A DNA stretch of 64,000 nucleotides from Minisyncoccota bacterium (GTDB taxonomy: Bacteria > Patescibacteriota > Minisyncoccia > Phycocordibacterales > GWA1-40-21), in assembly GCA_041674925.1 (NCBI GenBank), contig JBAYUW010000004.1:482-64481 (forward strand), read 5' to 3'. The notes under the pieces were generated by a model. It worked only from the letters and a program-made list of their open reading frames with translations, was not told the origin of the DNA and ran no database searches. A program made the translations under genes and the position numbers. The number at the start of each line of letters is the position of its first letter. Position 1 is the stretch's first letter. Below, one piece after another: positions 3,759 through 57,773 of this stretch.

Positions 3759-6602
3759 CTAATCGGTGATAATTGCCAAAATACGTCCTTTGATGAATAG
3801 TTTCTTTTTTATCTGCTTATCTGTTAGCCATTTAGTGACATCAGTAATTTTTAATGCTTCAGTTTCCACATCATTTTGATTGGATCCCGTTGGCATTTCA
3901 AAATTTGCTCGAGCTTTACCATTTATTTGCACCACGATTGTCATCATGTCGGACACAATCTTTTTTGGATCAAAGGTCGGCCATTTCTCTAAATGAATCG
4001 ATTTTTTGTGTCCCAAATTCGCCCAAATCTCTTCGGTCATATGGGGAGCAAAAGGAGACAACAATTTTAGAATTGCCTCATAATTTTTCTTACTAGTTCC
4101 TTCTTTTTCTGCCAAATTAACCAAGATCATAAAGGCAGAAATGGCTGTGTTGAAATTAAAACCAAGAATATCTTCGGTAACTTTTTTGATTGTCTTATGC
4201 AACAAAGTTTCGAAATCAGATGAGTTTTTTTCTGTAATTTTTTCTTGTAATTTCCAGACTTTTTCCAAAAATCTTCTTGAGCCCACCATATTATTAGTAC
4301 TCCAAGCAATTTCCTGATCAAATGGACCCATAAAACTTTCATATACGCGTAAGGTATCGGCGCCCACATCACGGACGACATCATCTGGGTTAACCACATT
4401 CCCCCAACGCTTGCTCATTTTACGGCCATCAGCTCCAAGAATCATTCCCAAATTTCTTAATTTGATAAACGGTTCTTTATAGTTCACGACGCCAACATCA
4501 TACAGAAACTTATGCCAGAATCGTGCGTAGATAAGATGACGAGTATTGTGTTCACCACCACCAACATAGAGATCGATCGGTGACCAATATTTTTCCTTTT
4601 TCTTATCAACTAAAACTTTTTTATTTTTTGGATCAATGTATCTCAAATAATACCAAGAAGAACCGGCCCATTGGGGCATGGTATTAGTCTCTCTTTTAGC
4701 TTTACCCTTACATTTAGGACATTTAACATTGACCCATTTATCAATTTTTGCCAGTGGCGACTCCCCGGTTCCGGTCGGTTCGTAAAATTTAACTTTTGGT
4801 AATTTTAAAGGTAATTCTTTCTCTGGTACCGGTACAACTCCACATTTTTCACAATGGATAAGTGGAATCGGCTCACCCCAATAACGCTGTCTTGAAAACA
4901 CCCAGTCTTTTAATTTGTAAGTCACTTTTTCCTGTCCATCGGCTGATTCGGTAATTTTTTTCTTAGCTTCTTCACTGTCTAGACCGTCAAATTGGCCGGA
5001 ATTAATAATCTTTCCTTGACCAGTAAAACAATCTTGACCAGTCTTATAAACTTGCCACATATATTTAAAAGCTTCGAGGTTCAGCCAGCCTTCCATTTTA
5101 TCAGCATCAATCCAAACTGTATTATGATTTTTTGTCTCTTCCTCTTTAATTTCTTCTTTATGTTCATCTATTAATTCAAACAAAAAGCCCTGTCCAATAC
5201 CATAACGATTAATATCCTTATGTGCGGCAAAAAAATGATTATGCTGTTCTCCACCCAGTTCTTTAATAAGTTTAATATTTACATACCCAGTTTCTTCTTT
5301 AACTTCACGGATTGCTGCATCCCTAAAACTTTCACCTTCTTCAAGCCCTCCAATAATACCAGAACGCCAACCAAATTTACCCCAGTCTAAACACAAAAAC
5401 TTGTTAGTTTTTTTGTTAAAAACTAGAGCATAGGCTGTTTTTCTTGCGACGGTTTCTTTATCTGCACGAACTTGATCTTGGTCGTTCTCAGATTTTATGA
5501 AAAAGGGAGCAATCACCTGTTTGACTGGCAAGTTATATTTTTTGGCAAAAGCAAAATCACGTTCGTCGTGGGCAGGGACAGCCATAACCGCGCCGGTGCC
5601 ATAATTTGCCAAAACATAATCGGCAATCCAGACCGGTAGAATTTCTTTAGTTAATGGATGTTTCGCCTCGACACCAAGCAATTGAATACCATTTTTAGGT
5701 TTATCAACTGCCGTTCTCTCAATTTCTGTTTTATTTTTTAGATCAACAATATATTTTTCGACTTCTTTCCAGTTTTTGATTAAAGGTTTTAATTTTTGGA
5801 CTAAATTACTTTCAGGAGACAAAACCAGATAAGTTACTCCAAACAAAGTATCTGGTCTGGTTGTGAAAACTCGAATTTTTTCTTCAGAATTTTTTACATT
5901 AAACCAAAGCTCTGACCCTTCACTTCGTCCAATCCAGTGCCTCTGGGCTTCTTTGACATTCTCCGGCCAGTCTTTTAACAAGTTTAAATCATTAAGAAGG
6001 CGATCAGCGTAATTGGTAATTTTAATTACCCACTGACGCAATGGCTTCTTTTCAATTTCTGTTCCACATCGTTCACATTTAGTACCATCCAAATCTTCGT
6101 TTGCCAAACCAGTTTTACATGATGGGCACCAATTGATTGGTTCATTACTTTCATAGACCAAACCCTTTTTATACATTTGTAAAAAGGCCCATTGTGTCCA
6201 TTTATAGTAATTTGGATCAGTCGTATTAATTTCTCGATCCCAATCATAATTCAAGCCGAGTATCTCAATCTGTTCTTTGTAGCGGGCCACATTTTTTTTA
6301 TCCATCACCATCGGATTAACTTTCATTTTGATGGCATAATTTTCTGCTGGCAAACCAAAAGCATCCCAACCCATTGGGTGTAAAACATTAAAGCCTTGCA
6401 TTCTTTTATAGCGCGAATAGATATCAGTGGCGACAAAACCGCGAGGATGACCGACGTGCAAACCCTGTCCAGACGGATAAGGAAACATATCCAAAATATA
6501 AAATTTTGGTTTATTATTTTTATTTTGTGTTTTATTTACGCCTTTCTTCTCCCAAACTTTTCGCCACTTCGGCTCTATCTTTTTATGATCGTAATTTTTC
6601 AT
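3759..6602 (-). CDS. leuS: leucyl-tRNA synthetase with an inserted NUDIX domain
   Basis: 947 aa with HVGH, CP1 editing motifs TTRPDT and GTGAVMAVPAHDERD, and KMSKR. An extra ~160 aa (aa ~365-528) contains a perfect NUDIX box. Confidence 0.9.
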   Translation of the reverse strand: MKNYDHKKIEPKWRKVWEKKGVNKTQNKNNKPKFYILDMFPYPSGQGLHVGHPRGFVATDIYSRYKRMQGFNVLHPMGWDAFGLPAENYAIKMKVNPMVMDKKNVARYKEQIEILGLNYDWDREINTTDPNYYKWTQWAFLQMYKKGLVYESNEPINWCPSCKTGLANEDLDGTKCERCGTEIEKKPLRQWVIKITNYADRLLNDLNLLKDWPENVKEAQRHWIGRSEGSELWFNVKNSEEKIRVFTTRPDTLFGVTYLVLSPESNLVQKLKPLIKNWKEVEKYIVDLKNKTEIERTAVDKPKNGIQLLGVEAKHPLTKEILPVWIADYVLANYGTGAVMAVPAHDERDFAFAKKYNLPVKQVIAPFFIKSENDQDQVRADKETVARKTAYALVFNKKTNKFLCLDWGKFGWRSGIIGGLEEGESFRDAAIREVKEETGYVNIKLIKELGGEQHNHFFAAHKDINRYGIGQGFLFELIDEHKEEIKEEETKNHNTVWIDADKMEGWLNLEAFKYMWQVYKTGQDCFTGQGKIINSGQFDGLDSEEAKKKITESADGQEKVTYKLKDWVFSRQRYWGEPIPLIHCEKCGVVPVPEKELPLKLPKVKFYEPTGTGESPLAKIDKWVNVKCPKCKGKAKRETNTMPQWAGSSWYYLRYIDPKNKKVLVDKKKEKYWSPIDLYVGGGEHNTRHLIYARFWHKFLYDVGVVNYKEPFIKLRNLGMILGADGRKMSKRWGNVVNPDDVVRDVGADTLRVYESFMGPFDQEIAWSTNNMVGSRRFLEKVWKLQEKITEKNSSDFETLLHKTIKKVTEDILGFNFNTAISAFMILVNLAEKEGTSKKNYEAILKLLSPFAPHMTEEIWANLGHKKSIHLEKWPTFDPKKIVSDMMTIVVQINGKARANFEMPTGSNQNDVETEALKITDVTKWLTDKQIKKKLFIKGRILAIITD

Positions 6603-19888: not shown

Positions 19889-19922
19889 TTTTATTGGACG
19901 TTCGCAAGAAATTGGAGATCAG

Positions 19923-20135
19923 ATGAACAATTATATGAAATGTACGAGATGCGACGATGTGGTTCCGTTTGTGATTATCAAGGTGTCAGTAGACGACGGT
20001 CTACCAATGGAAGCATACAAGTGTTCAAAGTGTAATGTGCTGTATCACACAGACGGAGATCCGCTGATCAACAACAAATGTATGGTGCTCTACTACATCG
20101 ACGATGTCATTGTCGAGAAACATCCTGGTGAATAA
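19923..20135 (+). CDS. small zinc-ribbon protein, 70 aa (cassette E)
   Basis: MNNYMKCTRCDD...YKCSKCNV: two CxxC pairs. Opposite strand to the flanking uvrC and uvrA. Confidence 0.5.
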   Translation: MNNYMKCTRCDDVVPFVIIKVSVDDGLPMEAYKCSKCNVLYHTDGDPLINNKCMVLYYIDDVIVEKHPGE

Positions 20136-20168
20136 ATAACAACAAGAACACTCGACCATGTCGTTTTA

Positions 20169-20198
20169 GCCCCGATGTCAGTCTCGGGGCAATTTTTT
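20169..20198 (+). terminator. rho-independent terminator
   Basis: GCCCCGAtgtcagtCTCGGGGC followed by AATTTTTT. Confidence 0.75.
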
Positions 20199-20207
20199 AC
20201 CACAAGA

Positions 20208-20334
20208 CCAACCTCACCCGGCGTCAGAACGCCACCCTCTCCTCGACTGAGGAGAGGGTTCTTGTTTCTAGAGTAATGTGATAGGAGCAGTTCCCCTCTC
20301 CTTAGCCAAGGAGAGGGGCTAGGGGTGAGGTTGG
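20208..20334. repeat. multi-hairpin palindromic element, copy 1
   Basis: 12-bp outer stem CCAACCTCACCC/GGGTGAGGTTGG encloses hairpins GGCG/CGCC, ACCCTCTCCTC/GAGGAGAGGGT and CCCCTCTCCTT/AAGGAGAGGGG. Confidence 0.6.
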
Positions 20335-20408
20335 CTTAATAAAGATTGACTATTCAGTTATTGTATAATAGTCTAATCTTGGAGTGCTCTCAAGGAAAGG
20401 AATATGAA

Positions 20409-20603
20409 ATGAACAGGATGACTGCGGTAATTCTCGTGTGTGTGGGTACAATATTTATGGGTATAGCTATTGCTATAGCTTCCATACCCACCACAACAAG
20501 TGATGTGGGAAGAAGGAAATTCCGCGTCAAAATTGTAACGATATTGTCTACCATTGGCATCGCCTGCTGGATGTCCATTGTGTTATTTCCACCGGCAGAA
20601 TGA
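20409..20603 (+). CDS. small two-TM membrane protein, 64 aa (cassette F)
   Basis: MNRMTAVILVCVGTIFMGIAIAIASIP.. after AAGGAAAGGA. In frame with track ORF 20346-20603. Confidence 0.45.
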   Translation: MNRMTAVILVCVGTIFMGIAIAIASIPTTTSDVGRRKFRVKIVTILSTIGIACWMSIVLFPPAE

Positions 20604-20621
20604 GCGGTTCAACACTACAAG

Positions 20622-20652
20622 GCCTCGGGATCACAACCGGGGCTATTTTTTT
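20622..20652 (+). terminator. rho-independent terminator
   Basis: GCCTCGGgatcacaaCCGGGGC (one G-U pair) followed by TATTTTTTT. Confidence 0.65.
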
Positions 20653-20657
20653 ACCAA

Positions 20658-28802: not shown

Positions 28803-28946
28803 ATGTTTTTAGTTATCCTGTTTATTAGCTTATTATATCAGTCATTACTCTAAAAAACAATTTGACTGAAATCATCTTTTATACTACCTTTATTTTGGAG
28901 TAGATGGAACATAACGTGTTAGAAAACAAAGACAAGGACAAAATCC

Positions 28947-29273
28947 ATGAATAAACTGTTGGATGCCCTCAGAGATCTCGTCATTCTGACTTGCCTCGTA
29001 GTTTTGGCCGTCAATGTGACAATAAGCAATATGACGGAGCGCAGGCAGACAAGCCAGGAAGTCATTGAGGTCATGAGCTGTATACATGACCAGACGATGT
29101 TCGAAAACGACGTCGTACAATTTCTGGTCCGACGTGAAAAAGGACTGGGAATTGTCTCTTTTGATCAAACAAATCCAGCGAATCAGGAATTCAACGCGAC
29201 CAATCCACCAGATTACTTGATTGAGACGATACTCGGTGACGGAACCAAATACTACAACGCACTCAATCTTTGA
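28947..29273 (+). CDS. hypothetical protein, 108 aa (cassette H; strand uncertain)
   Basis: MNKLLDALRDL.. preceded by AAGGA. A TTGACT lies at 28862 and a plus-strand terminator at 29375-29415. An antisense ORF 28890-29168 overlaps. Confidence 0.35.
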   Translation: MNKLLDALRDLVILTCLVVLAVNVTISNMTERRQTSQEVIEVMSCIHDQTMFENDVVQFLVRREKGLGIVSFDQTNPANQEFNATNPPDYLIETILGDGTKYYNALNL

Positions 29274-29290
29274 CTCAATCTGTCGACCGC

Positions 29291-29319
29291 TTGACTTTTT
29301 GTTTCAAAGATGATAAGCT
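29291..29319 (+). promoter_or_regulatory. promoter TTGACT-N17-TAAGCT
   Basis: TTGACTttttgtttcaaagatgaTAAGCT. Confidence 0.45.
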
Positions 29320-29325
29320 AGTTGT

Positions 29326-29415
29326 AGGTCAAGACACACTGTTCCCTGTTGCTGTTTCTGACTTCTGTCCCCTTGGAGCCATGATCTCACCTGAGATTCT
29401 CTGGCTCCTTTTTTT
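29326..29415 (+). ncRNA. candidate ~90-nt small RNA, convergent with holB
   Basis: Promoter at 29291-29319 and terminator GGAGCCA-tg-ATCTCA-cc-TGAGAT..TGGCTCC+TTTTTTT. Only a 13-codon ORF inside. Confidence 0.3.
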
Positions 29416-29416
29416 A

Positions 29417-30115
29417 TTATAAAGTCACCGCCAGATGATCCAAAATAACTTTGATCGAAGGTGATTCATCATTGGCATAGCTGATGGCTTTTTCAATATC
29501 CTCAATCGCCAAGAGACTGCCGCTGCGACTATTGTGTGCGTTTTTAGCTTTTAGACTTTCCTTGATCGTCTTTTCAATATCTTTCATAAAAGTAATCGCA
29601 TCATTTTTCGTCAATTTTTCATCTTTAATGTCCTTGACCATTTTTGCGACGGCTTCTAATCTTTTAGTTATTCCTAAAGATAAAAAATTCGACGCATTGT
29701 TTTTTAATTCAGCAGTTTCGTGACGGACAATAATCAAACGCGATTTCAATGTTGCAATAAGTCCAGTGACAGCAGGTAAAACCAAGAAAAAAGTTGTCTC
29801 GGCTTTTGGTTCTTCGAAGATTTTTAATAAAGAATTTTGCGCGTCTTTGGTAATAGAATTAGCAAATACAATAAAAACTTTTCGATTATATTTTATCGGT
29901 TGATTAATGTGAGCTTCTTGCAAGGCGCGACTATCGTCAATTTTAAAAACGTTAAATTCCTCGTGCCAAAAATCTGGATTGCCTTTGGTCTGAAACGCTA
30001 AATCTTTTTCCAAAAATTCAAAAATCGCCTCTTTGACCTTGGCGCGTTCCCCCAATACCCCATAGGCATGGTGCAAACGCCCAGTCCTTTTAAAGCTGTT
30101 TCGTATTTGTTGCAT
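29417..30115 (-). CDS. holB: DNA polymerase III delta-prime-like clamp-loader subunit
   Basis: 232 aa with HAYGVLG, VFIVFANSITKDAQNSLLKIFEEPKAETTFFLV (the LLK.LEEP motif). Confidence 0.7.
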   Translation of the reverse strand: MQQIRNSFKRTGRLHHAYGVLGERAKVKEAIFEFLEKDLAFQTKGNPDFWHEEFNVFKIDDSRALQEAHINQPIKYNRKVFIVFANSITKDAQNSLLKIFEEPKAETTFFLVLPAVTGLIATLKSRLIIVRHETAELKNNASNFLSLGITKRLEAVAKMVKDIKDEKLTKNDAITFMKDIEKTIKESLKAKNAHNSRSGSLLAIEDIEKAISYANDESPSIKVILDHLAVTL

Positions 30116-30123
30116 GACTACTT

Positions 30124-30132
30124 AGTATAGCA
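30124..30132 (-). promoter_or_regulatory. extended -10 box TGcTATACT, 8 nt before holB ATG
   Basis: Minus strand gtgTGcTATACTaagtagtcATG. Confidence 0.5.
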
Positions 30133-30138
30133 CACTTT

Positions 30139-30280
30139 CCACCACCTCCCCCTCGCGGACTCGGGTACTCCTCCTTAAACAAGGAGGAGATCCGGAGTGA
30201 CGTAACAGAGTGAAGTAAAGGATTATCTGGAATCCCCTCCTTGTTCAAGGAGGGGTGTCATTCTGATGACGGGGTGGTGG
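30139..30280. repeat. multi-hairpin palindromic element, copy 2
   Basis: Outer stem CCACCACC/GGTGGTGG encloses hairpins CTCCTCCTT/AAGGAGGAG, CCCCTCCTT/AAGGAGGGG and GTCAT/ATGAC. Confidence 0.6.
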
Positions 30281-30293
30281 AAGAATTAATTAA

Positions 30294-30338
30294 CAAAAGA
30301 GCCCGACCAGAAAGCATCAAGGCTCAATTGTCGGACTC
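30294..30338 (-). terminator. terminator of cassette I
   Basis: Minus strand GAGTCCGAC...GTCGGGCTC (9 bp, one G-U) followed by TTTTG. Confidence 0.55.
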
Positions 30339-30354
30339 GCGCTCACTACACGAC

Positions 30355-30576
30355 TCACTCGTGGCAGGTGTTGATATACGTCGCAATAGACAATAGATCA
30401 AAGTTGTCCTCGATCACGTCTTGCTTTACTGCCTCAAGTTGCACATGATTGATCGTCGCAGTGGGATTCACATACTCTGAAAGCCAACGAAAAAAATTGC
30501 AGAGACGAACTTCATCGCCCTCTTCAAACCCTTCGTACTGCCGAGAAAGTTCCAGCATGGCCTTTTGTGCATTCAC
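30355..30576 (-). CDS. small acidic protein, 73 aa (GC-rich cassette I)
   Basis: GTG start 4 nt after AGGAGGTGA. (M)NAQKAMLELSRQYEGFEEGDE.. No family recognised. Confidence 0.45.
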   Translation of the reverse strand: MNAQKAMLELSRQYEGFEEGDEVRLCNFFRWLSEYVNPTATINHVQLEAVKQDVIEDNFDLLSIATYINTCHE

Positions 30577-30616
30577 GGCTCACCTCCTATAAATTTAAAA
30601 CTCAACCTCAGATTAT

Positions 30617-30646
30617 ATTATATACATAAAATAGAGTGCATGTCAA
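30617..30646 (-). promoter_or_regulatory. promoter TTGACA-N18-TATAAT (cassette I)
   Basis: Minus strand TTGACAtgcactctattttatgtaTATAAT. It abuts the stop of mreB copy 2. Confidence 0.55.
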
Positions 30647-31660
30647 CTATCTCTTTGCAATAATAGATTTTTTGTAAACATCCAAATGCTCGAGCGCGAT
30701 ACCGGTGCCCTTGGCGACGCAATACATAGGATCTTTGGCCACACTGGCCTTGACGCCGGTACGGCGGAAAACGAGTTCAGCCAAATTTCGAAGTTGAGAT
30801 GAGCCACCGGTCATAATAATTCCTTGATCGATAATATCAGCGGCGAGCTCGGGTGGAGTTTCTTGCAAGACATCTTTGATTGCCTTGATCATGTCGCGTA
30901 ATTCTTTACTGATCGCTTTCACGATTTCATTGGTTTTGATTTCCGCGGTTCGAGGTAAACCAGACAAGAAATCTCGGCCTTTAATAGTCATGGTCAATTC
31001 TTCTTCCATCGGCACAGCTGAGCCGACATTGATTTTAATATCTTCGGCTGTCTTGTCACCGATCGCCAGGTTGAAAGTTTTTTTAATATAATCGGCAATG
31101 GCATAATCAATTTTATTTCCCGCGCATTTCACCGAGGTCGAGGAAACAATTCCACCCAAAGAAATCACCGCCACATCGGTCGTACCACCACCGATATCCA
31201 CCACCATATGCCCCATCGGTTCTTGAATCGGAATGCCGGCACCAATCGCGGCTAAAATCGGTTCCTTCACCACATAAGCATTTTTAGCTCCCGCTTTCAT
31301 GGCCGCTTCGATCACCGCACGTCTTTCAGTGGAAGTCACACCGGCTGGAACAGAGACCATTACTTCAGGTTTAAAAAGATTCCATTTACCGAGAGCTTTA
31401 TCAATAAAATATCGAAGCATGGCTTCGGTCACGCGATAATCAGCAATCACACCGTCCTTCATTGGACGATATGCAATAATACTGTCAGGAGTTTTTCCAA
31501 GCATTTTTTTGGCTTCCACTCCAACGGCCAAGATTTTATTATCTTGTTCAGAAACCGCAACGACAGAAGGTTCAAATAACACCACACCTTTACCTGGCAA
31601 AAAGACTAGCGTATTCGCTGTTCCCAAGTCGATTCCTAGTTTTTTCGCGAAGAATGCCAT
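30647..31660 (-). CDS. mreB: MreB/Mbl actin-like protein (copy 2)
   Basis: Start set at MAFFAKKLGIDLGTANTLVF; the track ORF extends 38 codons further upstream. VDIGGGTTDVAV, IIMTGGSSQLRNL. Confidence 0.85.
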   Translation of the reverse strand: MAFFAKKLGIDLGTANTLVFLPGKGVVLFEPSVVAVSEQDNKILAVGVEAKKMLGKTPDSIIAYRPMKDGVIADYRVTEAMLRYFIDKALGKWNLFKPEVMVSVPAGVTSTERRAVIEAAMKAGAKNAYVVKEPILAAIGAGIPIQEPMGHMVVDIGGGTTDVAVISLGGIVSSTSVKCAGNKIDYAIADYIKKTFNLAIGDKTAEDIKINVGSAVPMEEELTMTIKGRDFLSGLPRTAEIKTNEIVKAISKELRDMIKAIKDVLQETPPELAADIIDQGIIMTGGSSQLRNLAELVFRRTGVKASVAKDPMYCVAKGTGIALEHLDVYKKSIIAKR

Positions 31661-31764
31661 AGATATATTCAATATAGCACTTCTGGAGAGTTTTACAATC
31701 CTTGCTTTTAAACACCAAAAGGTGTTAAATAATCTAGGGTTTGGTCTTAATAAAGGAGGATACC

Positions 31765-32025
31765 GTGAACACAAAGAAGGCTAACATCACTTGTTCGAGG
31801 ATTGCTCACACCCTTTGTGATTTATCACCGAACACCACGGCGATAATGGATGCCGTAAGGATTGCGGAAAATGGAAAGGACGGTCGCTACTGCATACCCG
31901 AACCTTACGTCAAGCGAATCACAATTACAGTGGAGGTGGAGATTTATGACCCTCTCAATTCTGCAAATTTTCGAGGTCATCCGAATCGGATCACTCGACG
32001 GGCCAGCAAGACCCGAACGATCTGA
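31765..32025 (+). CDS. small protein, 86 aa (cassette J)
   Basis: GTG 4 nt after AAAGGAGGA. (M)NTKKANITCSRIAHTLCDL.. with a basic C-terminus. Confidence 0.45.
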   Translation: MNTKKANITCSRIAHTLCDLSPNTTAIMDAVRIAENGKDGRYCIPEPYVKRITITVEVEIYDPLNSANFRGHPNRITRRASKTRTI

Positions 32026-32048
32026 CTCACTCGAATGAAAGTACTTTG

Positions 32049-32084
32049 TCCGGGGTTGCGCAACGCGCGACCTCGGCTTTTTTT
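32049..32084 (+). terminator. rho-independent terminator
   Basis: CCGGGGTTGCGCaacGCGCGACCTCGG stem followed by CTTTTTTT. Confidence 0.7.
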
Positions 32085-32155
32085 GACACATAAATATATT
32101 TATAGTAGATTTATGCACAGAATTGGTCTTGAACGATAAACGCAAGGGGTTAGAA

Positions 32156-32503
32156 ATGAACACATCGTATGACTTGTTTCATTTTGTTCTGAAACACTGG
32201 GTGTTTTTCTTGGGAGTAAGTTGCTATGCGGCCGTTTGGATAATCGAATATTTCAATAAGAACACCTACGTTCGACACGGGTTCGATATGCCACGACACA
32301 CTTACCAATTAGATACGGTCTGTATCGTTGTGCTCGCTAGCCTGTTTCTGGCTATCCTGACCAAACTGGTCAGCACAGGAACTCCTTTCGGGAGTAGCCT
32401 GATTGTGGAAATGATCACTATCTGGATTAAGTTCTGGGTCAGTATCATGATTTCAATGATCGTGGTCAGCATCATTTACGATCAGCTTATTAGTCCGACG
32501 TAG
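32156..32503 (+). CDS. four-TM membrane protein, 115 aa (cassette K)
   Basis: MNTSYDLFHFVLKHWVFFLGV.. after AAGGGG. TTGACA at 32083. Confidence 0.5.
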   Translation: MNTSYDLFHFVLKHWVFFLGVSCYAAVWIIEYFNKNTYVRHGFDMPRHTYQLDTVCIVVLASLFLAILTKLVSTGTPFGSSLIVEMITIWIKFWVSIMISMIVVSIIYDQLISPT

Positions 32504-32522
32504 CTGACCAAGGGATCAGCAA

Positions 32523-32553
32523 GTCGCCTCGATATCGGGGCGGCTTTTCTTTT
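32523..32553 (+). terminator. rho-independent terminator
   Basis: GTCGCCTCGatatCGGGGCGGC (two G-U pairs) followed by TTTTCTTTT. Confidence 0.65.
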
Positions 32554-32651
32554 ATCGCACTATAGATATTTTTTACAATATATTTGACAATCGAATAAAT
32601 TTACGTTAGTTTATTCATTGAATTGCTCGTTAACAATGAAAGGACTCAATC

Positions 32652-32933
32652 ATGAACACCCTATCTGAAATCTTTCAGCTCGCTATGACCCACCCGGCGA
32701 TATCTTTAGGTGTGGCGTTTACTGTGGTAACTTACGTTATTATGACCATCGAGAATTGGAGCAACAGAAAACAAACTGAGGCGTACTCGATTGTTTTGTG
32801 TTTGTTTTGTCTGGTTATAGTTGGTATTCTGTGTCATGGATCCTTAAGTCAACTCATTAACTTCTTGGCTGGATTACTTACATCCTTCGCTATTATAGGC
32901 ATAGTATTGGGTATTTTCGGTTGGACTAGATAA
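32652..32933 (+). CDS. three-TM membrane protein, 93 aa (cassette L)
   Basis: MNTLSEIFQLAMTHPAISLGVAF.. TTGACA at ~32585. Confidence 0.5.
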   Translation: MNTLSEIFQLAMTHPAISLGVAFTVVTYVIMTIENWSNRKQTEAYSIVLCLFCLVIVGILCHGSLSQLINFLAGLLTSFAIIGIVLGIFGWTR

Positions 32934-32948
32934 ACCAGTCTTCGGTGG

Positions 32949-32976
32949 CCGCCCTCACATAGGGCGACTTTTCTTT
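32949..32976 (+). terminator. rho-independent terminator
   Basis: CGCCCTcacatAGGGCG followed by ACTTTTCTTTT. The flank is identical to that at 32544-32560. Confidence 0.6.
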
Positions 32977-56859: not shown

Positions 56860-57072
56860 AATTATTGTACTCGAGACAAATTATTGAGAATATGTTGAAA
56901 AGTAAATGTGTATGATTTGGCTAACAAGATTGGTGTGACATAAATAGGATTCCGCCTTTTACCAAAGATAAAAAGTTCGAACCATCAGAATGGGTACCTC
57001 AAAACACCTTTGATTTATAGGGCTGAAACTTTTGCTCCGTGGGTAGGGATCGAACCTACGACCAATCGCTTA

Positions 57073-57653
57073 CATTTTGTCCAAAATTTCTTTTGGTATG
57101 GACTATATCATCATCCTTCATTTTATTGAGTGGGATGTGGGGCGCTTCGCTAGTCATCCTAAAATGACAGCTACTCTCTTGCGAGATAGTCTCTGAACCT
57201 TTACGTCAATCGACGCACTTGGCTGCTGATTGCCCACGACTTTCTTTAAAAAAGATACGTTTGGGTTTCCAGCAATTCACCTCATTTTTCATCCTAAATT
57301 ACTTTAGGAAGCTGCGTAATACCGTCATGTACTTCCATATGACAATTAGAACAGACCAGGACACATTTCTTAATTTCTCTCTCAATTTTTTCCCAAGAAC
57401 GAGTCAAACCCCTCGACGAGAGATCGAAATTTTTCTTCTTTGGATCAATATGATGGAAACTAAGTGCTCTCTGACATTTACTATAGCCACACAAAATACA
57501 CTTATTGCCTTTAGATGTTCTGGCCATCTCACGAAGTTTTCTTCTTCTTCGTTTAACAGCCTCTCGCATATAAACAGCACGGTCGGCATAAGTCCTTGTT
57601 TCTTTTTTGGTATACATATATGAAGTATACCAAGAAAATTAGAACTTCTCAAC
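57073..57653 (-). mobile_element. group I-like intron (~581 nt) with homing-endonuclease ORF
   Basis: 5' exon ends in U and the intron ends in G. AAGGUUCAGAGACUAUC (57185-57201) matches the conserved core of bacterial tRNA group I introns. The HNH ORF occupies the 5' part. Confidence 0.7.
57294..57617 (-). CDS. HNH homing endonuclease, 107 aa (intron-encoded)
   Basis: CILCGY..ALSFHHIDP..(N)..LVCSNCHMEVH: HNH motif with flanking Cys pairs. Basic N-terminus. Confidence 0.8.
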   Translation of the reverse strand: MYTKKETRTYADRAVYMREAVKRRRRKLREMARTSKGNKCILCGYSKCQRALSFHHIDPKKKNFDLSSRGLTRSWEKIEREIKKCVLVCSNCHMEVHDGITQLPKVI

Positions 57654-57773
57654 ACAGGCGATCGCTCTACCGCTGAGCTACCACGGAATATCTATTCAAT
57701 TGTAATGAACAGTGTTCTTGTCAGAACTCTCATATACTAACAGAAAGTCAGAGAAAAATAAAGAGGACAGCGA

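Follow-up and report, generated by a model that had tools for sequence, protein, structure and literature searches.

Intrastrand triplex repeats have been studied mainly in Escherichia coli. The BoxC/PIT repeats are said to have been described by Bachellier in the 1990s and by Hoyne and Maher in 2000 and 2002. BoxC, the PIT element, and TMECO are one E. coli repeat, the best-known class II intrastrand triplex motif, with the consensus CCCTCNCCC-N3-6-GGGNGAGGG-N3-GGGNGAGGG, and its isolated strand forms a very stable triplex by circular dichroism (CD) and nuclear magnetic resonance (NMR) (PMC4666352). TMECO is strictly intergenic and has no strand bias, earlier work saw neither promoter nor terminator activity in it, and sequence variability is raised at its loci; 5 of the 23 sites in MG1655 consist of two units in inverted orientation, and in every such pair the units are of different types (PMC4666352). 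Published searches for such motifs limit the second loop to 0 to 10 nt (Hoyne) or 1 to 6 nt (ITxF). Among archaea, the recurrent G-quadruplex (G4)/triplex repeats of Methanomicrobiaceae form a triplex by S1 probing and CD (PMC8044849). Here we compare with these systems an element at positions 30139 to 30280 (copy 2) of the window, that is, of the whole 64,000-nt stretch of Patescibacteria DNA that was analyzed, together with its second copy at positions 20208 to 20334 (copy 1).

We consider it likely that this element is a DNA-level repeat made of two class II purine-motif intrastrand triplex units of the BoxC/PIT/TM kind, inverted head to head. The initial annotation of the locus had read it as a palindrome of several hairpins whose helices are selected at the RNA level, and direct reading of the sequence finds all of the stems that it drew. 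CCACCACC (30139-30146) is complementary to GGTGGTGG (30273-30280) over an 8-bp outer stem, hairpins 1 and 2 both have perfect 9-bp stems, and the small hairpin near the right end is present as well (coordinates are given in the table). Copy 2 is indeed flanked by a cassette terminator on one side and by the extended -10 of holB on the other, and copy 1 has the same order of parts. The two copies belong to one family. Both are intergenic. The motif CTCCTTNNNNAAGGAG (with at most one mismatch) has 3 matches in the 64-kb window, all within copies 1 and 2, compared with an expected 0.11. The minimum-energy fold with DNA parameters is the architecture of the initial annotation, and the z-scores for the folded DNA single strand are -5.8 for copy 2 and -8.8 for copy 1.

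Watson-Crick pairing in the hairpins constrains the sequence of the element. Hairpin 1 is 100% paired across 9 homologues, with changes on both sides at 2 pairs, and hairpin 2 is 92.6% paired, with changes on both sides at 4 pairs. The annotation's claim that the stems differ in a pair-preserving way therefore stands (12 pairs have changes on both sides in the 9 homologues, a number reached in 0 of 500 shuffles), but its attribution of this to selection on RNA does not. Mini-hairpin A is only 50% paired in the MAFFT alignment through misalignment, and its stems were re-read directly from the sequences. The linker that had been taken as conserved (AGAGTGAAGTAAAGGA in one copy and AGAGTAATGTGATAGGA in the other) is not: there are nearly no conserved spacer columns in nine related elements, and in the closest relative, L042, the spacer sequence differs.

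The strongest constraint is a mirror code on three strands that ties each hairpin to the G-rich tail flanking it. The real unit is a half-element, which reads 5'-pyrimidine arm, 4-nt loop, purine arm, connector, and G/T/A-rich tail-3', and in which the tail mirrors the purine arm so that G faces G, and T or A faces A. As read from the bases, this rule is the antiparallel reverse-Hoogsteen code of the purine-motif DNA triplex (G.G-C, A.A-T, and T.A-T); a physical demonstration exists only for E. coli TMECO in vitro. Purine arm AAGGAGGGG goes with tail GGGGTGGTT, AAGGAGGAG with GAGGTGGTT, AAAGGAGGG with GGGTGGATT, and, in Clostridia, AAAGGAG with GAGGATT. Insertions covary between arm and tail as well, AAGGAGAGGGG being matched by GGGGTGAGGTT, and in the related element L137 a C-G pair that hairpin 2 has in the window and in L042 is replaced by T-A, with a change from G to A at the matching position of the tail. 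Selection on structure was thus the right idea in spirit, but it is at the DNA level and the decisive structure is three-stranded.

Only four G-rich pyrimidine/purine hairpins occur in the 64 kb, all of them in copies 1 and 2, and each has a perfect mirror tail of 8, 9, 9, or 11 triplets on its outward side only. The inward sides reach at most 5 to 7 triplets, a mismatch included, and that of copy 2 has no mirror tail (at most 5 triplets, likewise with a mismatch). Hairpin 1 is self-complementary and is therefore a pyrimidine/purine hairpin whichever strand is read. The left tail of copy 2 makes 9 perfect triplets (GTGGTGGAA) against purine arm AAGGAGGAG, or 8 in an alternative register, GAGGTGGT, by direct reading, and has a p value of 0.011 against shuffles of the 45 nt downstream. 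The right tail of copy 2 makes 8 perfect triplets against AAGGAGGGG. The right half of copy 1 has 11 triplets and a canonical 3-nt connector, and its left half has 9 triplets and a 15-nt hairpin connector. Per unit, p ranges from 0.0005 to 0.016 in the window against shuffles of the 45 nt downstream, and from 0.003 to 0.18 in the strictest test, in which the tail bases are permuted in place.

The mirror code was examined further in a family of related elements. One genome per species was scanned for two CTCCTY-N4-RAGGAG hairpins 30 to 60 nt apart, which gave at least 118 loci, and a metagenome scan was made as well; the family figures given here hold among the matches listed. Tails are absent from both search patterns, so that there is no ascertainment bias on them. 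CRISPR arrays and coding matches were set aside from the genome scan, and many high-GC coding matches in the metagenome scan were ignored; L046, L092, and L118 are such CRISPR arrays, unrelated false positives of the hairpin pattern whose repeats contain CTCCTC-N4-GAGGAG. As a control, the scanner was applied to TMECO types A and B, in each of which it detected a unit of 9 triplets, and to a published non-triplex mutant, which it rejected. At least 8 perfect contiguous triplets are found in 218 of 569 distinct hairpins; shuffling lowers this count to 6, and a non-mirror control gives 57. When the register is fixed by the G.G positions alone, the tail base that faces a purine-arm A is T in 454 cases, A in 144, G in 50, and C in 30, which is 88% A/T against a background of 42%, over 87 distinct arm/tail combinations. 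The ~3:1 ratio of T to A agrees, as we infer, with a purine motif on the G-rich strand and not with a pyrimidine motif on the C-rich one, for which the tail base would have to be A.

Among 31 head-to-head pairs with unlike hairpins, 53 units have a tail that matches its own hairpin better than that of the partner, 6 are ties, and in 3 the partner's hairpin is the better match. In L006, for example, the scores are 10 and 10 for the own hairpin against 4 and 3 for the partner, and in L016 they are 10 and 9 against 4 and 4. Tails are also kept where there is no partner arm at all, in single units (L124 and L141) and in tandem direct arrays (L076, L111, and L067). The tails are constrained by the mirror triplet code, and because they follow their own hairpin, not the arm of the partner, the outer stem, which had been regarded as a designed helix, is largely a by-product of two units placed in inverted orientation.

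Features of the two repeat copies and of the mreB-holB insertion (positions in the window)
Feature	Position	Strand	Sequence or remark
Copy 2, left half-unit tail (putative reverse-Hoogsteen)	30137-30152	-	minus-strand reading GGGGGAGGTGGTGGAA; plus strand is the C-rich outer arm TTCCACCACCTCCCCC
Copy 2, mini-hairpin A (left-half connector)	30150-30165	.	CCC-TCGCGGACTC-GGG
Copy 2, hairpin 1	30168-30189	.	pyrimidine arm CTCCTCCTT, loop aaac, purine arm AAGGAGGAG
Copy 2, central spacer between half-units	30190-30233	.	44 nt, unconserved; no conserved block among homologues
Copy 2, hairpin 2	30234-30255	.	CCCCTCCTT, loop gttc, AAGGAGGGG
Copy 2, mini-hairpin B (right-half connector)	30257-30270	.	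GTCAT-tctg-ATGAC
Copy 2, right half-unit tail (putative reverse-Hoogsteen)	30271-30280	+	GGGGTGGTGG; doubles as 3' arm of outer stem
Copy 1, second head-to-head pair	20208-20334	.	
Copy 1, C-arm	20208-20219		
Copy 1, mini-hairpin	20220-20233		GGCGT-caga-ACGCC
Copy 1, left hairpin	20234-20259		
Copy 1, spacer	20260-20292		
Copy 1, right hairpin	20293-20318		
Copy 1, loop	20319-20321		CTA
Copy 1, right tail	20322-20332		GGGGTGAGGTT
Lineage-specific 515-nt insertion between mreB and holB	30133-30647	-	
Consensus promoter in insertion	30646-30617	-	12/12 matches
73-aa orphan open reading frame in insertion	30576-30355	-	one 99% homologue, no Pfam family
Terminator of 73-aa open reading frame	about 30325-30292	-	hairpin and T-run
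Putative triplex-repeat pair in insertion	30282-30137	-	abuts holB promoter
holB extended -10	30124-30132	-	TGcTATACT

The layout is common to Bacteroidia, Terriglobia, Competibacteraceae, Novosphingobium, a cyanobacterium, Saccharibacteria, Peregrinibacteria, other Patescibacteria, and Clostridia, and the stem sequences of the Clostridia members are quite different. Many matches lie at contig ends and recur in one genome, as expected of a multicopy repeat. Close relatives of both copies occur in the uncultured lake bacterium Loclat_bin-10598: L042 shares 84% identity with copy 2, and L064 shares 77% with copy 1. Units lie mostly outside long open frames, and the open frames over units are short compared with those at random positions. 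The 101 neighboring open reading frames (ORFs) fall into 165 Pfam families with at most 3 per family, so no gene is associated with the repeat, and no transposase, RAYT/Y1, or integrase family is among the 25 most frequent of these families listed. Viral contigs contain ~2 genuine elements among 2.9 million, which gives no link to phage. Three Bacteroidia pairs (L020 2222-2393, L107 6522-6697, and L078 7475-7654) lie within a further, locus-specific inverted repeat, such as GGGGCTGTCTCATAAG...CTTATGAGACAGCCCC, and look as if they had been inserted into the loop of a preexisting hairpin or terminator.

The length of the connector between purine arm and tail is bimodal in 243 triplex-competent units, 2 to 5 nt in 117 and 12 to 26 nt in ~110, and the long connectors fold on themselves (mean, -5.2 kcal/mol, compared with -1.4 when shuffled). 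Three of the four window units have a connector of 14 to 22 nt with a mini-hairpin of its own; in copy 2 the right connector is 15 nt and the left is 14 to 22 nt, depending on the register. Among Patescibacteria-type copies, the 10-nt loop of mini-hairpin A, TCGCGGACTC, is conserved while its 3- to 4-bp stem covaries (CCC/GGG, GGC/GCC, TGCT/AGCA, TGTC/GACA, GCC/GGC, and TGC/GCA), and the core of mini-hairpin B, ATTCTGAT, is conserved on a varying stem (GTCA/TGAC, GTCTA/TAGAC, and GCCA/TGGC). The core of mini-hairpin B recurs without mismatch (CATTCTGATG) at 56983-56992 on the minus strand in the context GAGGTACCCATTCTGATGG, just downstream of an intron-containing tRNA gene; there is no triplex unit around it, and it may be a chance match or a decayed remnant.

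The element is a recent, noncoding insertion that is not bound to any gene, and it arrived with or beside a small cassette carrying an orphan ORF, at a hypervariable intergenic spot. In a relative whose HolB is 97% identical (L119), the mreB-holB gap is only 30 nt, and 13 nt of it align opposite window positions 30133-30647 (515 nt). The spacer of the relative being so short, the small ORF and the element together are an insertion. No triplex unit was found in 12.9 to 20.7 kb of syntenic DNA from four relatives (HolB identities of 97, 72, 72, and 67%), the uvrA-uvrC spacer included, and copy 1 is missing from that spacer in relatives L153 and L154. The initial annotation had suggested that the element is part of the small-ORF cassette. 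In L121, a 72% relative, the mreB/holB site is occupied by another small-ORF cassette, whose 3' end is related to that of the window cassette, and the element is absent there; L042 has a near-identical element directly after an unrelated small gene, without a cassette; therefore, the element is separable from the cassettes. At 3 of the 4 Patescibacteria-type loci examined, a small orphan-ORF cassette nevertheless has its terminator within ~15 nt of the element, a placement that would fit the reported link of such repeats with variable sites.

The extended -10 of holB (region 30113-30132, minus strand) lies only 8 nt upstream of the ATG, so that the transcript would be leaderless or nearly so, and the insertion left this promoter intact. 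The L121 cassette (positions 4356-5000, a 77-aa ORF) was compared with window positions 30290-30345 (minus strand); its terminator region resembles that of the window cassette (GAGTCC..GAGCC...GGTCGGGGCTCTTTTGTTA), and the likeness of the two sequences is suggestive of either a 3' end or an insertion mechanism common to both cassettes. Intergenic segments at 28841-29416, 30133-30647, 31709-32965, and 19908-20657 are absent or different in L119, L153, and L154. Their ORFs are small (65 to 126 aa) and GC-richer and match no Pfam family convincingly; several come with a terminator, and for one the scan gave a consensus promoter. In a genome of the candidate phyla radiation (CPR) that is syntenic in other respects, these segments have the look of a set of small-gene cassettes that are mobile or turn over fast. 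The sole homologue found for the 73-aa ORF is 99% identical, and the cassette family is untraceable from it; exact look-ups of HolB and of this homologue (P0243) returned no record. The ribosome recycling factor of the window is 64% identical to a 'Candidatus Paceibacterota' protein, and a distant HolB homologue is labeled 'Patescibacteria group'. Elsewhere in the window, at 57013-57695 (minus strand), a tRNA gene is apparently split by a group I intron (5' part, TCCGTGGTAGCTCAGCGGTAGAGCGATCGCC...; 3' part, ...GGTCGTAGGTTCGATCCCTACCCACGGAGCA); the intron has an Rfam match at 57080-57340 (79 bits), the split tRNA was not called by ARAGORN, and the intron ORF is a candidate HNH-type homing endonuclease judging by its residues (...HHIDPKKKN...CSNCHMEVH...).

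Several other explanations of the element must be weighed against a pair of triplex units. The view of the initial annotation, a structured noncoding or cis-regulatory RNA, draws on the strong predicted RNA folds (z-scores of -4.8 and -5.7) and on the compensatory changes in the helices. We regard it as very unlikely. No Rfam family matches the element even at E values up to 10; nothing attains the gathering score, and the best hits are microRNA models with 14 to 26 bits against thresholds of 35 to 96. The element is near-palindromic and folds equally well on either strand, it stands in either orientation to neighboring genes with none of them associated, and in the window it follows a terminator and lacks its own promoter. 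Close relatives lack it. The long-range pairing of hairpin 1 with hairpin 2 that is the RNA minimum-energy fold was rejected, as the homologues agree with it less well (93.7% paired, many of the pairs being G-U, and 80.2%) than with the local hairpins (100% and 92.6%). The dominant constraint, moreover, is the purine-motif triplex code, which is closed to RNA; triplexes of this motif are reported not to form in RNA (Holder 2015, PMC4666352). A DNA structure of another kind would be a switch in which the G-rich purine arm and tail form a G-quadruplex that competes with the hairpin. Such a G4/hairpin switch was reportedly proposed for E. coli BoxC by Kaplan et al. in 2016. A G4 has also been proposed for the archaeal repeats, which interconvert between triplex and G4 in vitro (PMC8044849), and the G strand of copy 2 does run GG, GGGG, GGGG, GG, GG. 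This is the least probable of the alternatives: a G4 predicts neither T or A facing each purine-arm A nor the mirror registry, in the Clostridia-type members (arm AAAGGAG, tail GAGGATT) the mirror code persists without four G-runs, so that a quadruplex is impossible there, and NMR on E. coli TMECO found a triplex, not a G4 (PMC4666352).

The alternative that we take most seriously, while still finding it unlikely, is a purely Watson-Crick palindromic repeat that is recognized by a transposase, that is, a repetitive extragenic palindrome (REP) with its composite forms BIME and REPIN, or a miniature inverted-repeat transposable element (MITE). The mirror tail would then be incidental and the element would be mobile DNA without triplex biology. 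REP/BIME/REPIN sequences are mobilized by RAYT transposases. Like them, the element is a short, GC-rich, extragenic palindrome that occurs as singletons, inverted doublets, and tandem clusters in both orientations; it is multicopy (high-copy in some genomes, with many matches at contig ends and recurrence in one genome), and its presence varies between strains and close relatives. Its cruciform fold is stable by prediction, and the conserved connector loops could be protein sites. It differs from REPs in that no GTAG-type 5' tetranucleotide is seen, and REPs have no mirror third arm. Like the MITEs Correia/NEMIS, RUP, ERIC, and Nezha, it has ~100 to 150 bp, terminal inverted arms, a predicted long stem-loop, and an intergenic insertion site, but no parent insertion sequence is seen, and under the triplex code each of its inverted arms is matched to the hairpin beside it, not merely to the other arm. 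Against both stand the mirror code itself, which holds over 87 arm/tail combinations with A or T specifically facing A, the tails that follow their own hairpin in place of the would-be pairing arm of the partner, and the lack of a RAYT or other transposase among the most frequent Pfam families listed for the 101 neighboring ORFs. Direct reading of the flanks showed no target-site duplication, a comparison with the empty site being confounded by the co-inserted cassette. The placement beside cassettes raises the further idea of a recombination or landing site, like the attC of integrons, that captures the small GC-rich ORF cassettes found beside both window copies and L064. attC sites are recognized as folded single strands; they are imperfect palindromes of 57 to 141 nt beside small promoterless or short ORF cassettes, and in this they resemble the element. 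The terminator-proximal position at three of four loci, the position of the element at one edge of the 515-nt insertion, and the hypervariability of TMECO-bearing loci in E. coli are all in keeping with capture, yet we hold it to be highly improbable, given that at the same site L121 has a related cassette and no element, that L042 has the element without a cassette, and that genomes lacking cassettes of this kind widely contain the family. No RYYYAAC/GTTRRRY core site is present in copy 2 by direct reading, its ends being CCACCACC...GGTGGTGG, and thus no R''/R' sites; an attC identity considered for copy 1 from its suggestive CCAAC...GTTGG was dropped because copy 2 lacks these cores. The cassettes here have their own promoter and terminator and can dispense with the element (L121), and no integrase is among the most frequent Pfam families listed for the neighbors.

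Some results weigh against a triplex-unit pair as well. Copy 2 by itself is weak when the tail is permuted in place (p = 0.18 and 0.05), so that the case rests on the family, and the family members are related, so that the unit counts are not independent events and the test statistics ignore phylogeny. The Saccharibacteria-type copies (L019, L045, L048, L125, L134, and L142) have the tail GGGGCGGTTGT, in which C faces a purine-arm A, a noncanonical triplet; in L142 the 'purine' arm itself carries C (AAGGCGGGG), which keeps the mirror and breaks the purine rule. The triplex also faces a competing Watson-Crick fold, the multi-hairpin one with the outer stem, for which stability is predicted. That a triplex folds across connectors of 14 to 22 nt that bear hairpins is a prediction from sequence, and the conserved connector loops TCGCGGACTC and ATTCTGAT, which the triplex model leaves unexplained, could point to sequence-specific recognition, perhaps by a protein. 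Finally, dimethyl sulfate footprinting found no triplex in vivo at E. coli TMECO (PMC4666352).

If the element is a pair of triplex units, its folding may be pictured as follows. When the G-rich strand becomes single-stranded during replication or transcription or under negative supercoiling, the two arms of a unit would form a Watson-Crick hairpin, and the tail would then fold back into the major groove, where it would run antiparallel to the purine arm and make G.G-C, A.A-T, and T.A-T triplets. In copy 2, both connectors (14 to 22 nt) would make mini-hairpins of their own at the turn. With the units inverted, the tail of one would be complementary to the C-rich complement of the other, which would account for the apparent outer stem and make possible a cruciform or multi-hairpin fold in competition with the triplex. 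By analogy with TMECO, which has been studied in this respect only in vitro, the element would most likely be a selfish or neutral structure-forming repeat able to impede polymerases and promote local rearrangement. A bolder proposal, which we put forward as a tentative possibility, is that the three-way covariation across Patescibacteria, Bacteroidota, Acidobacteriota, Proteobacteria, Clostridia, and Cyanobacteria is evolutionary evidence that purine-motif triplexes are formed and selected in cells, that units with long, hairpin-bearing connectors are a large subclass missed by all triplex finders, and that the Patescibacteria loops TCGCGGACTC and ATTCTGAT are sites for a protein that mobilizes the units or puts them to use as landing pads for cassettes with small ORFs.

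For annotation, these results mean that the element should be recorded as a repeat, not as an RNA gene or regulator, and taken as the mark of an intergenic site with a recent rearrangement. The covariation of mirror code and hairpin in many phyla is evidence of a comparative kind, and it could open to testing the question of whether the triplex matters in vivo. About half of the collected units lie beyond the published limits on connector length, so current counts of bacterial triplexes probably miss a large class, small CPR genomes included. The triplet covariation across phyla and this overlooked long-connector class may merit follow-up.

Compared with the archaeal repeats, which are likewise interspersed and intergenic and combine a GC hairpin with a G-rich antiparallel third strand, the element has its parts in the opposite order: the archaeal repeats have the G-rich segment 5' and the C-tract 3' (class I-like), their hosts are archaea, and inverted pairs are not described in the available part of the source (PMC8044849). 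TMECO and the element have the same order within the unit (pyrimidine arm, loop, purine arm, loop, and reverse-Hoogsteen arm; class II purine motif) and the same triplet code, both are intergenic in either orientation at variable loci with no gene association, and both form inverted pairs of two slightly different unit types. For a class II motif, arms of 6 to 15 nt with a short loop are expected, and copy 2 has perfect 9-bp stems with 4-nt loops; an antiparallel third arm with at most one mismatch is expected, and copy 2 has 8 and 9 triplets and copy 1 has 11 and 9. The intergenic position on either strand beside no particular class of genes agrees as well. A second loop of 1 to 6 or 0 to 10 nt, which is a limit of the searches and not a physical rule, is found only in the right half of copy 1 (3 nt). 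This half (CCCCTCTCCTT / AAGGAGAGGGG / cta / GGGGTGAGGTT) has its core and its 3-nt second loop in common with TMECO (CCCTCTCCC / GGGAGAGGG / tta or ccg / GGGTGAGGG) and by direct comparison is one position off the TMECO consensus in each of the three arms; the consensus itself has 0 exact matches in the window. The arms of copy 2, unlike those of TMECO, resemble a Shine-Dalgarno sequence (CCTCCTT/AAGGAGG), and the window pairs are head to head with their tails outward, whereas the tails of the E. coli pair 1+2 point inward, judging from the coordinates in Table 1 of the TMECO study. The host is also different, being a CPR bacterium. The kind of repeat (intrastrand triplex, BoxC/PIT/TM) is thus a known one, of which the window copy is an ordinary member, and what is new is the Patescibacteria host, the head-to-head arrangement, and the mini-hairpin connectors of 14 to 22 nt, which exceed the loop limits of published triplex searches.

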